64,000 bases of DNA from an uncultured Candidatus Saccharibacteria bacterium (GCA_965231055.1 OZ246411.1:277041-341040), one strand, 5' to 3'; shown: positions 941 through 60,361, numbered from the stretch's first letter. Notes: generated by a model not told the origin, from the letters alone. Numbers and translations: made by a program.

Positions 941-983
941 TCGTCGTCATCCCCGTGAAAACGGGGATCCAGACGTCGTCGTG
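941..983. repeat. Copy 1 of the GTCGTCATCCCC-hairpin element (tcGTCGTCATCCCCgtgaaaacGGGGATCCAGACGTCGTCGtg)
   Basis: Hairpin ATCCCC/GGGGAT flanked by direct GTCGTC(G) repeats. Near-identical copy in inverted orientation at 59646-59689, variants at 59474-59550 and 59749-59765. Confidence 0.6.
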
Positions 984-1372
984 ATGCTTCGCGGAGTGAC
1001 TTTTCATAACTAAAAAGTCACCAAAAGGTTTCGGGGGAGTTCAAGGTCGCTAGTCGTTTACATATTGAAAGCGCAATGATTTATAGGAAGACGCTCCAAC
1101 AGTGCGAACTCCCCCGAACCCCCTACTGATACATGAAATAGTTTATTTATGGGTTTCTACTAAATCTGACTACTTAATACTTTTTGGAATACAAAAAAGC
1201 CGTGGGAGGTCCCTTGGCTTTCTTATACCTTAGCTTGGTGTCTAAATATTAATTCCAAATTAATTATTAGTCAAGTCATAAAAAAAAGTTTGCTAAGAGT
1301 GGATTGACAATACCAATAAAAATGCTAGTTTTTAGCGTTGCGGATCGAACAAACACCAAGGAGGAGATTGCA

Positions 1373-58506: not shown

Positions 58507-58582
58507 TGATATACTATGAATATTAAGCTATCAGCTTTCAGTGCCCAGTCGCTATGAATACTGAACATTGAATACTATACCT

Positions 58583-59440
58583 ATGAACATCGGGGCTCAC
58601 GTATCTATAAAAAAGGGTTTGGTTGGTGCTGTGGAAGAAGCGCATGATTTGGGTTGTACTACTTTTCAAATATTTTCAAGAAACCCCAGAGGAAGAGGAG
58701 AAAAAGAAATTACTGATGGGGAAATAAAAGACGCCCATAAAAATATGAAAAAATACGGCATAGAGTCCTTTTATATTCATACGCCGTATTATACAAATCT
58801 CGCTTCGTTCAACGAAAAAACCTTTCACTCATCTATTTTTTATATTTTGAAGGATCTGGAAAAAGCAAAGCGCATAGGGGCAAGAGGATTTGTAATGCAT
58901 ATGGGAAGTCATCTCGGAAAAGGTGAGGACTATGGGATCAAGAGAGTGGCTAGGGGACTTGAGAAGATTTTTCAAAAAGACAAAAGCGGCACACCTATTT
59001 TAATGGAAGATACTTCGGGAGCTGGAAATGAAGTGGGAAATAGTTTTGAATCACTCGGAGAGATAATGAAAATAATTAAAAACAAGAAGAAGGGATATGA
59101 AAAACAGCTAAAAATTTGTTTGGATACTTGCCATTCATTTGCTGAGGGGTATGACTGGCGCGAAGAAAGCAAACTTCAAAAAAATCTCAAAGAATTTGAT
59201 AAGTATTTGGGAATTGATAATTTGTGGCTAATACATACAAACGACTCAATGGGGGATTTGGGAAGTCATAAGGATAGACATGATCATCTGGGTAAGGGGA
59301 AAATGGGGAAGCGCGCTTTTGAGATGCTTGCTAGTCATAAGTTACTTAAAAACAAAGATTTTATCGTAGAGACTCCAGATGATGGTGAAAGAATAAAAGA
59401 TATAAAGATGCTAAAGAAAATAGCGTCAAAAAGTAAATAA
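58583..59440 (+). CDS. nfo: Endonuclease IV (AP endonuclease family 2)
   Basis: MNIGAHVS, the HTPYYTNLAS, HMGSH and CLDTCH metal-binding motifs. Confidence 0.85.
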   Translation: MNIGAHVSIKKGLVGAVEEAHDLGCTTFQIFSRNPRGRGEKEITDGEIKDAHKNMKKYGIESFYIHTPYYTNLASFNEKTFHSSIFYILKDLEKAKRIGARGFVMHMGSHLGKGEDYGIKRVARGLEKIFQKDKSGTPILMEDTSGAGNEVGNSFESLGEIMKIIKNKKKGYEKQLKICLDTCHSFAEGYDWREESKLQKNLKEFDKYLGIDNLWLIHTNDSMGDLGSHKDRHDHLGKGKMGKRAFEMLASHKLLKNKDFIVETPDDGERIKDIKMLKKIASKSK

Positions 59441-59473
59441 TCTGGCAATTACAAATTGTTATTGCAATGTTTT

Positions 59474-59550
59474 CTTCGTCATCCCTGTCGGCAGACAGGC
59501 AGGCCCGCACCCACTTTTGTGAGTATAAACTCCAGCAGGGATCCAGACAC
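59474..59550. repeat. GTCGTCATCCC-hairpin element, long-loop variant
   Basis: CTTCGTCATCCCTG ... CAGGGATCCAGACACC with a 48-nt insert containing a CTGTC-ggca-GACAG hairpin. Confidence 0.55.
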
Positions 59551-59645
59551 CACGTATGATTAATTTTAGGAGGGATAAATGAATAAAAGCTATTATGCAT
59601 ATATTTTAGCAAGTAAGTGTAGTGATACTATTTTTTGATATTAAA

Positions 59646-59689
59646 CCGCGACGACTTCTGGATCCCCGATCGGGGTCGGGGATGACGAC
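59646..59689. repeat. GTCGTCATCCCC-hairpin element, inverted-orientation copy
   Basis: Reverse complement GTCGTCATCCCCgaccccgatcGGGGATCCAGAaGTCGTCGcgg matches copy 941-983 almost base for base. Confidence 0.65.
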
Positions 59690-59748
59690 TGTGGTAAATT
59701 TCTGTTCATAGTTTAAGATAACTAAATTACTCGCAAGTCTTCTTTTTT

Positions 59749-59765
59749 GCGGGGATGACGACGGG
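59749..59765. repeat. Half-copy of the GTCGTCATCCCC element (GCGGGGATGACGACGGG)
   Basis: Reverse complement CCCGTCGTCATCCCCGC. Confidence 0.5.
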
Positions 59766-59788
59766 AGAGATTATAACAATAAAAACAA

Positions 59789-60361
59789 ATGGATACACTG
59801 GAAAAAATCGCTGGTGAAATAAAAGAGTGTAAAAAATGCCAGCTTTGTAAGACGAGAACAAATACTGTACCAGGTCACGGAAGTGAAAAAGCGGAAATTC
59901 TTTTTATAGGAGAAGGACCAGGGGCAAACGAAGACAAACAAGGCCTTCCTTTTGTGGGAGCTGCGGGGAAATATCTAGATAAACTTCTCGCGCTAATTAA
60001 TCTCAAAAGAGAGGATGTTTTTATTGCGAATGTGGTGAAATGCAGGCCTCCCCAAAACAGAGATCCTCTTCCTGAAGAGGTAGAAGCTTGTTGGGATTAT
60101 TTGCAAAGACAAATCAAAACCATAAAGCCGAAACTGATTGTTACACTCGGTAGACACTCGATGGCGAGATTTATAAAGATAGGAACTATTTCTTTGAATC
60201 ACGGACAGCCAAAGAGAGTCGCAGGACAAGTGTATTATCCCGTGTATCATCCCGCGGCCGCACTTTATAGAGGCGCGCTCAAGATTGATTTGGAAAAAGA
60301 TTTCAAAAAAATTCCTGCGATAATCAGGAAAATAATAGAACTTGAAGTAAAAACAAAATAA
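59789..60361 (+). CDS. Family-4 (Fe-S) uracil-DNA glycosylase
   Basis: CKKCQLCKTR...ILFIGEGPGANEDKQGLPFVGAAG. Confidence 0.85.
   Translation: MDTLEKIAGEIKECKKCQLCKTRTNTVPGHGSEKAEILFIGEGPGANEDKQGLPFVGAAGKYLDKLLALINLKREDVFIANVVKCRPPQNRDPLPEEVEACWDYLQRQIKTIKPKLIVTLGRHSMARFIKIGTISLNHGQPKRVAGQVYYPVYHPAAALYRGALKIDLEKDFKKIPAIIRKIIELEVKTK

Follow-up and report, generated by a model that had tools for sequence, protein, structure and literature searches.

The 348-nt spacer between nfo and udg (59441-59788) in the 64-kb stretch of DNA analyzed here, hereafter the window, contains three hairpins, of which one is interrupted, one complete and one a half copy. This raises the question of what these elements are: mobile DNA, structured RNA, or recognition sites of an enzyme. 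An earlier note made from the sequence had placed three hairpin elements (long-loop, full and half) in this spacer and a fourth at 941-983, and had remarked that the cluster lies between two DNA-repair genes; the positions of all four and the identity of both flanking genes are confirmed (Table 1). That note left open whether the similarity of the copies reflects recent mobility or strong functional constraint.

Two published descriptions bear on this question. Repeats of the CGTC-1 family possess a CGTC head, an 8-bp stem starting with AT, a 4-nt loop and a CCA tail, and include Neisseria dRS3 and Rickettsia RPE-6; as of 2013, CGTC-tagged REPs were listed from five phyla and "lacked a dedicated transposase", with no dedicated enzyme found (Di Nocera et al., BMC Genomics 2013, PMC3733652). 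The Ssn proteins, small GIY-YIG proteins of the cd10448 group, are site-specific single-stranded DNA nucleases whose target is the hairpin repeat NTS, CGTCATTCCCGCGMAVGCGGGAATCYRG, generalized as Ssn-related motifs (SRM) that are typically found on both sides of the ssn gene (Chenal et al., Nat Commun 2025, PMC11893778). Binding of SsnA to the NTS requires single-stranded DNA, and cleavage takes place directly upstream of the repeat; for the Neisseria and Wolbachia enzymes, it is established that the motif is bound and cut exclusively in single-stranded form, a few nucleotides 5' of it (PMC11893778).

Here, we describe the cluster as what is very probably a decayed SRM-ssn-SRM cassette, the hairpins of which would be recognition sites of an Ssn-family GIY-YIG nuclease acting on single-stranded DNA, given that the hairpins bracket a truncated ssn-type GIY-YIG gene. 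The system as such is already described, the repeat in 2013 and the enzyme in 2025; in the present case it is decayed and resides in a lineage that those papers leave unmentioned, Patescibacteria being absent from the 2025 account (PMC11893778).

Architecture of the nfo-udg spacer

Table 1. Features of the nfo-udg locus and of the solitary hairpin, with hairpins and the short ORF named according to the proposed identification; positions are those of the window.
Feature	Position	Strand	Source
Solitary complete SRM in a divergent intergenic region (earlier note: 941-983)	942..975	+	SRM pattern, model R1
nfo (deoxyribonuclease IV / AP endonuclease 2), left flank, outside the element	58568..59440	+	Pfam PF01261 (AP_endonuc_2), E 2e-38
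Interrupted sense SRM (copy 1; earlier note: 59474-59550)	59477..59546	+	sequence, arm pattern search
Copy 1, head CGTCAT	59477..59482	+	
Copy 1, 5' arm ATCCCTG	59481..59487	+	
Copy 1, loop/insert, 48 nt	59488..59535	+	
Copy 1, 3' arm CAGGGAT	59536..59542	+	
Copy 1, tail CCAG	59543..59546	+	
AGGAGG ribosome-binding site (RBS), 5 nt ahead of the stump ATG	59568..59573	+	read from sequence
ssn-type GIY-YIG nuclease gene stump, 19 codons and TGA, MNKSYYAYILASKCSDTIF	59579..59638	+	translation
Complete antisense SRM (copy 2; earlier note: 59646-59689), CGTCATCCCCG-ACCCCGAT-CGGGGATCCAG, 8-nt loop	59655..59690	-	SRM pattern, model R1
Copy 2, 3' extension GTCGTCG	59649..59655	-	
Half SRM, 5' arm alone, CCGTCGTCATCCCCGC (minus strand)	59749..59765	-	direct repeat
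udg (uracil-DNA glycosylase superfamily), right flank, outside the element	59789..60361	+	Pfam PF03167, E 7e-35

The spacer reads, in order, sense SRM, RBS, ssn start, antisense SRM and antisense half SRM. With a sense SRM upstream and antisense SRMs downstream, the CGTCAT heads point outward on either side. Between the end of the sense SRM and the stump ATG lie 32 nt, and the antisense SRM starts 20 nt past the stump stop; the RBS and the 19-codon ORF between copies 1 and 2 had been overlooked in the earlier note. Homologs of the left flanking gene carry the name deoxyribonuclease IV, the nearest named Nfo homolog (50% identity) being that of a "Patescibacteria group bacterium", from which a Patescibacteria-type host is inferred. 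The position of the cluster between two repair genes appears to be incidental.

Searching the window for GTCGTCATCCC with at most one mismatch yielded four occurrences (943 and 59475, and 59679 and 59752 on the minus strand) versus 0.28 in shuffled sequences, and a pattern search located GGGATCCAGAC-type 3' arms at 964, 59538 and, on the minus strand, 59656. No copies beyond these four were found in the window, either with a pattern allowing 3 mismatches or with the covariance model R1 (see below) run with filters off. Four copies in 64 kb is far below the SRM-rich genomes of Chenal et al. 2025 (PMC11893778). The solitary copy reads CGTC-ATCCCCGT-GAAA-ACGGGGAT-CCAG, with an 8-bp stem and a 4-nt loop, and its DNA fold is at -13 kcal/mol (z -3.7). 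Copy 1 is a long-loop element with the arms TTCGTCATCCCTG and CAGGGATCCAGAC (59475-59548), and its 48-nt loop has no second occurrence in the window. The copy 1 stem is CCCTG/CAGGG versus CCCCG/CGGGG elsewhere, a compensatory C>T / G>A change that leaves the arms complementary at 7/7 positions and argues for evolution as one hairpin; the long-range stem is not the predicted minimum-energy fold (z = -0.7). Over 13 nt, the half SRM repeats 59677-59689 exactly and in direct orientation.

The 941 and 59646 copies had been described as about 95% identical. This figure does not hold for the elements as a whole, which share 34 identical columns among 46 aligned; in the arms, 32 of 33 positions agree (13/13, 12/12, one C/A difference, 7/7), and the loops differ in both sequence and length (TGAAAA versus ACCCCGAT).

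Identification of the hairpins as Ssn-related motifs

The published degenerate SRM pattern, HGTCWYN(0-2)YYVSBRHN(0-5)WNVSBRGN(0-2)RNCYNB (motif from PMC11893778), matches the window at 945-972 on the plus strand and at 59658-59687 on the minus strand, that is, two matches versus 0.1 expected from 100 shuffles of the window. A covariance model, R1, was built solely from 53 SRMs adjoining ssn genes in unrelated metagenomes; covariation is seen at 6 of its 8 pairs, and pairing holds in 97% of cells, compared to 19-53% when the pairing is slid. Model R1 detected the same two hairpins, at 942-975 (42.8 bits, E 2.9e-10) and 59655-59690 (32.9 bits, E 2.7e-7), and with filters off found nothing else below E = 1 in the whole window. 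Neither the published pattern nor model R1 matches copy 1 or the half copy, copy 1 being missed because of its long loop.

The element is not confined to this lineage. The arm pair CGTCATCCC..GGGATCCAG was found in at least 120 loci from many phyla in species-representative genomes, including a Paceibacteria and a Microgenomates MAG, and nearly all of the loci matched are 28-nt hairpins with a covarying inner stem; at one inner-stem pair, the combinations in these genomes are GC 16, CG 12, AU 4 and UA 2. In one MAG labelled Pseudomonadota, the 28-mer is identical to that of the window and its flanks are unrelated. When the NTS of Chenal et al. 2025 is set against the 941 copy of the window, CGTCATCCCCGTGAAAACGGGGATCCAG, the two are the same oriented hairpin with compensatory stem changes. 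Judging from these sequence matches, the complete hairpins of the window can be assigned to the Ssn-related motifs, an element also known as the NTS/dRS3 of Neisseria and as CGTC-tagged REPs. Of the two explanations offered earlier for the similarity between copies, strong functional constraint is thus the one borne out, by the occurrence of the CGTCAT-stem-loop-stem-ATCCAG unit with covarying stems in many phyla and by the identical 28-mer; the similarity is constraint kept across phyla, and recent movement of single hairpins finds no support.

The GTCGTC repeats had been taken for target-site duplications, and the hairpins could accordingly be miniature non-autonomous transposons (MITE or REPIN-like), each a single insertion that duplicated a GTCGTC target. 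In the 941 and 59646 copies, GTCGTC indeed stands ahead of the stem and GTCGTCG after the tail, and the numbers of CGTC-type REPs vary between strains and species, as is typical of mobile DNA (PMC3733652). The 5' GTCGTC, however, overlaps the conserved CGTCAT head and is therefore part of the element, and copy 1 lacks the 3' GTCGTC. The same GTCGTC recurs in each copy of the window, where a MITE would be expected to show end repeats varying from copy to copy. The flank profiles of 98 SRMs from other genomes show just a pyrimidine at -1 and no GTCGTC, being unconserved outside the head and tail; the identical 28-mer in the Pseudomonadota-labelled MAG likewise has other flanks, and a search of the metagenome collection for the extended unit GTCGTCATCCCC..GGGGATCCAGANGTCGTC gave 0 matches. 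No transposase adjoins the copies, and the sole enclosed ORF is of the GIY-YIG type. On this evidence, insertion of single hairpins as miniature transposons is improbable and the reading as a duplication fails; the GTCGTCG behind the tail represents an extension specific to this lineage and common to two copies.

A second alternative is that the hairpins act as RNA, be it as terminators, attenuators, mRNA-stabilizing stem-loops for nfo/udg, or a small RNA. Such a role would fit G+C-rich stems located just downstream of nfo in a 37% G+C genome, and REPs of other bacteria are often transcribed and can stabilize mRNA (PMC3733652). A consensus scan of 59300-59900, however, identified no terminator-like site (there is no T run) and no promoter-like site. 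In a search of the whole window against Rfam 15, tRNAs alone reached the gathering score, and no meaningful match at E up to 1 was obtained in 59380-59850 or 830-1310. The unpaired head and tail are conserved, and the orientation of the hairpins is tied to the ssn gene rather than to local transcription; furthermore, SsnA does not bind RNA (PMC11893778). In relatives, an overlapping or 63-nt nfo-udg junction suffices, and the spacer is not conserved even in L221, a genome with flanks about 84% identical to those of the window. A function of the hairpins as RNA therefore seems hardly likely. A literature search for peptides that the hairpin would encode, such as VIPAKAGIQ, found no papers.

A truncated ssn gene between the hairpins

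The ORF enclosed by copies 1 and 2 resembles the start of an Ssn protein. Its translation MNKSYYAYILASKCSDTIF and the N-terminus of the GIY-YIG protein P0121, MNKSYYVYILASKKNGTLY, are identical at 13 of 19 and similar at 16 of 19 positions (pairwise E 1e-7), and the stump aligns with positions 1-14 of an Ssn HMM for which four proteins of this kind were used. The pattern YYxYILAS..GTLY marks the region of the N-terminal GIY motif in small GIY-YIG nucleases with a single domain. P0121 and the ssn loci used here carry Pfam PF01541, and the P0121 gene has a sense SRM 12 nt ahead of its ATG. Compared against all 2061 ORF segments of the window, the stump alone is not significant (E 2.2, tied 2nd-3rd); its identification comes from the combination of homology, RBS and position between the hairpins.

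The reading frame ends after 19 codons and lacks a complete GIY-YIG domain with the catalytic residues, and the stump has Asp in place of the conserved Gly of NGTLY. We consider 59579-59638 to be an ssn pseudogene stump, the rest of the ~95-codon gene having been deleted, such that no functional member remains at this site. The nuclease gene at the nfo-udg locus is dead. No intact GIY-YIG ORF was detected in the 64-kb window (best 5.6 bits), and cutting of the window hairpins would still be possible only with an intact ssn elsewhere in the genome. A probe combining the stump with the HMM consensus retrieved 1800 generic family members, and among the 120 of these 1800 matches that were listed, none lies on the source contig. 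At 59568-59590, a stretch within the region of the RBS and start codon, Logan contigs from this organism are interrupted, which hints that the same 5' end is present elsewhere in that sample, that is, that a second sequence sharing the ssn start exists there.

The non-significant score of the ORF across the window is what could be expected if the short ORF were noise and the hairpin matches chance G+C-rich palindromes. Against this, the arm motifs exceed the shuffled expectation (4 versus 0.28), the model R1 matches have E values of 3e-10 and 3e-7, and hairpins, RBS and a GIY-type N-terminus occur together in canonical order and orientation. Coincidence can practically be dismissed.

SRM-ssn architecture in other genomes

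The layout of the spacer was compared with that of 80 independent metagenomic loci encoding Ssn-type proteins. An SRM lies within 300 nt of ssn in 57 of the 80 loci and on both sides of the gene in 32, counts close to the 71% and 42% reported for the same two classes by Chenal et al. 2025 (PMC11893778). Upstream SRMs are sense in 43 cases versus antisense in 11, and downstream SRMs are antisense in 46 versus sense in 13; the sense copies mostly end 18-30 nt ahead of the YYVY codon, and the antisense copies mostly begin 0-12 nt past the stop. The layout of the window, with a sense copy upstream and an antisense copy downstream, is the dominant one in this set.

The unusual components of the spacer also have counterparts elsewhere. 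L193, which encodes an intact ssn, contains a sense SRM with the same inner stem and loop (CCCGTGAAAACGGG) as the 941 copy, as well as an SRM identical to copy 2 at 29 of 30 nt, loop included, ~430 nt upstream of the gene, and tandem arrays of 5'-arm half copies near ssn. Solitary or tandem 5'-arm half copies are common near ssn elsewhere (L193, L016, L031, L094, L100), and long-loop or nested SRM variants, too, are typical of the surroundings of ssn and recur in other genomes, several of which have SRM loops expanded by nested hairpins.

The nfo-udg junction in related genomes

The tig-nfo-udg synteny is conserved in relatives, and the junction between nfo and udg is variable. The two genes overlap by 14 nt in L126 (Nfo 53% identical) and are separated by 63 nt without a hairpin in L002 (Nfo 58% identical), by 140 nt in L124 (Nfo 53% identical), by 188 nt in L221 (flanks ~84% nucleotide identical) and by 348 nt in the window. 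In L221, homology to the window ends at 59432 and returns at 59789. Between these ~84% identical flanks, the two spacers are unalignable, an observation counted as a point for cassette mobility. The L221 spacer contains outward-facing heads, TGTCATTCC on the left and TGTCATCCC on the minus strand on the right, and no further head of this kind occurs in 8.1 kb; neither an ssn stump nor a model R1 match was found in it. Model R1 gave no match in L221, L002, L124 or L126. A long-loop-like element in the L124 spacer was examined as a possible homolog of the window spacer and rejected, the similarity not being significant.

From the comparison of the junctions, the spacer is evidently an insertion relative to the more distant relatives. 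Given the short or absent spacer in those relatives and the different hairpin debris in L221, we infer that a cassette was inserted after the split from the L002 and L126 lineages and then decayed differently in the window and in L221, which would amount to insertion followed by fast turnover. Empty sites in related strains had been proposed as a check on mobility; the comparison with relatives supports insertion of the whole cassette at this site, and no precise filled-versus-empty pair at nucleotide resolution was found.

Proposed mechanism and mobility of the cassette

By the proposed mechanism, the complete hairpin (5'-CGTCAT / 7-8 bp stem / loop / stem / CCAG-3') would be an oriented Ssn recognition site. 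When the motif strand becomes single-stranded, during replication, repair or DNA uptake, the hairpin would form; Ssn would then bind both the stem and the unpaired bases immediately adjoining it on either side, and its cut, confined to the motif strand, would fall a few nucleotides 5' of the CGTCAT head. Activity as a nuclease, the site of the cut and any role in vivo are presumed here by analogy.

Because the heads point outward and the published cut falls just 5' of the head, cuts at an intact cassette would be predicted immediately outside each end, on opposite strands. This geometry raises the possibility that the hairpin-ssn-hairpin unit itself is mobile, with the GIY-YIG nuclease as the mobilizing enzyme. 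L002 has a divergent GIY-YIG gene of 81 aa between TTCGTCC(C)GCC..GGCGG(G)ATCTACGG hairpins, the upstream one being sense and the downstream one antisense; this unit fills exactly the gap between tRNA-Leu and tRNA-Cys, two genes separated by 9 nt in L126 and by 71 nt in L124. Cassettes in this lineage thus sit in different tight junctions, nfo-udg (overlapping in L126) and tRNA-Leu/tRNA-Cys. Against mobility of the cassette, neither the nucleotide-level filled-versus-empty pair mentioned above nor a target-site duplication was found, and against mobility in general, the Ssn protein P0130 has the same neighbors in 24 of the 24 contigs read. Ssn is not known to carry out transposition. That the cassette moves as a whole is no more than plausible, and we regard a mobilizing role of the nuclease as a rather doubtful proposition; if true, it would supply the "missing transposase" of the CGTC-type REPs.

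Comparison with known systems

With the SRM/Ssn system of Chenal et al. 2025, the window shares the SRM-gene-SRM architecture and the Ssn-type N-terminus in the enclosed ORF. It differs in that the gene is cut to 19 codons, one SRM is split by a 48-nt loop and another is reduced to half, and also in the host, which looks like a small genome of the Patescibacteria type (844-kb contig, 37% G+C), and in the low copy number in the window. The Ssn/SRM system is thereby placed in a very small, Patescibacteria-like genome, and the locus illustrates how a cassette decays, with its gene truncated, one hairpin split and half copies present. For annotation, the spacer is best labelled as a probable ssn pseudogene with SRM / CGTC-REP hairpins, not as a new mobile element or a regulatory RNA.

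Compared with the CGTC-1 family (PMC3733652), the 942-975 copy has every defining feature, whereas copy 2 deviates in having a loop of 8 nt; head-to-head dimers predominate in that survey, whereas in the cassette of the window the heads face outward around a gene. Whether CGTC-type hairpins and a GIY-YIG gene move as a unit is a question raised in both 2013 and 2025, and the present locus contributes circumstantial evidence in the form of insertion into tight gene junctions and rapid turnover.

The REP-RAYT (REPtrons/REPINs) and IS200/IS605 systems resemble the SRM-ssn arrangement in that a small nuclease gene is bracketed by inverted hairpins recognized as single-stranded DNA, and in the many orphan hairpins scattered through the genome. 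They employ an HUH tyrosine transposase and a GTAG tag, whereas the ORF enclosed by the repeats of the window is of the GIY-YIG type and their tag is CGTC, and IS200/IS605 cuts one strand at both ends, in contrast to the predicted cuts on opposite strands just outside both ends. The GIY-YIG homing endonucleases of the I-TevI type share the catalytic fold and a selfish-element-like distribution. Homing enzymes of this type are located in introns or as free-standing phage genes, possess a separate DNA-binding domain and cut double-stranded intron-less alleles. Unlike these enzymes, the Ssn proteins are single-domain proteins of ~95 aa and are specific for single-stranded DNA.

The nfo-udg spacer and a possible variant cassette in related genomes

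The flanking genes of the nfo-udg spacer (coordinates in the table) are approximately 77-85% identical at the nucleotide level between the window and the related locus L221, yet the two spacers, 348 and 188 nt long, respectively, are wholly unalignable, an indication that the cassette site is locally hypervariable. Both spacers consist of debris of the SRM (Ssn-related motif) type, with the heads facing outward. In another relative, L124, this spacer carries an element of the form TTCGTCTGCC..(~70 nt)..GGCAGATGTCC that resembles a long-loop version of the hairpins found in L002 (below) and occupies the same position as copy 1 of the window. Comparison of the L124 and window spacers showed no significant similarity, and the element was not detected when L124 was searched with R1, the covariance model built from 53 SRMs adjoining ssn genes in unrelated metagenomes.

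In the relative L002, a GIY-YIG gene is bounded on both sides by TTCGTCC(C)GCC..GGCGG(G)ATCTACGG hairpins, the upstream one in sense and the downstream one in antisense orientation, that are not covered by the published SRM pattern. This hairpin-gene-hairpin unit corresponds exactly to the gap between tRNA-Leu and tRNA-Cys, genes that are separated by 9 nt in L126 and 71 nt in L124, and it looks like a filled-versus-empty site of a variant cassette.

Coordinates of the features described in this section
Sequence	Position	Strand	Feature
Window	59441-59788		nfo-udg spacer
L221	4585-4772		nfo-udg spacer
L124	3881-3975		Long-loop element, nfo-udg spacer
L002	4850-5271		Hairpins and GIY-YIG gene
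L002	4911-5156	minus	GIY-YIG gene, 81 aa; subfamily other than canonical Ssn
L193	1030-1345		Half SRM arrays, 5' of ssn
Window	59568-59590		L001/L129 break
Window	1027-1042 / 1106-1121		16-nt inverted repeat
Window	996-1021		9-bp hairpin

SRM arrays, nested loops, and the ssn stump

At L193, a locus with an intact ssn gene, half SRMs, which have the 5' arm alone, form tandem arrays, one comprising 4 copies of a ~27-nt unit, TTGTCATTCCAGTCCTTTCTTCTCACC, and a second, on the opposite strand, consisting of repeated GCGGGAATGACA units. Three complete SRMs lie upstream of this gene, with one more beyond its stop codon. Among the matches listed, L096, L044, L105, and L030, from unrelated genomes, contain a second SRM-like hairpin within the SRM loop (for example, CGTCATCCCGGATAGAGCCTGTCCCGGTGAAAAACCGGGAATCCGGGATCCAG). 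SRM loops seem to be recurrent insertion points, and such insertion may explain the 48-nt loop of copy 1 in the window.

Two Logan contigs from one sample and from the same organism as the window meet at the ssn stump: L001 ends and L129 starts, with a 23-nt overlap, at the ribosome-binding site and first four codons. This break suggests that the 5' end of the stump is present elsewhere in that metagenome, possibly in another allele or in a copy of ssn that is intact.

Other intergenic features and annotation artefacts

The divergent intergenic region that contains the 941 hairpin, a solitary SRM, also harbors an inverted repeat (GGTTTCGGGGGAGTTC / GAACTCCCCCGAACCC; 94% complementary, arms 63 nt apart), adjoined by a perfect hairpin, GTGACTTTT..AAAAGTCAC. 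A scan of this region against Rfam matched no family at either feature, and the inverted repeat could represent either a regulatory site or a structured RNA that has yet to be catalogued.

Gene callers carry ORFs on through the hairpins (P0121, P0150, and ORFs of L048 and L193). Pseudo-peptides generated in this way recur, among them PAQAGIQ, IPAFAGMT, and VIPVKTGI, either at the ends of proteins or annotated as "hypothetical proteins" in their own right. These are an annotation artefact that deserves flagging; the window hairpins themselves translate into VVIPVKTGIQT and similar peptides.
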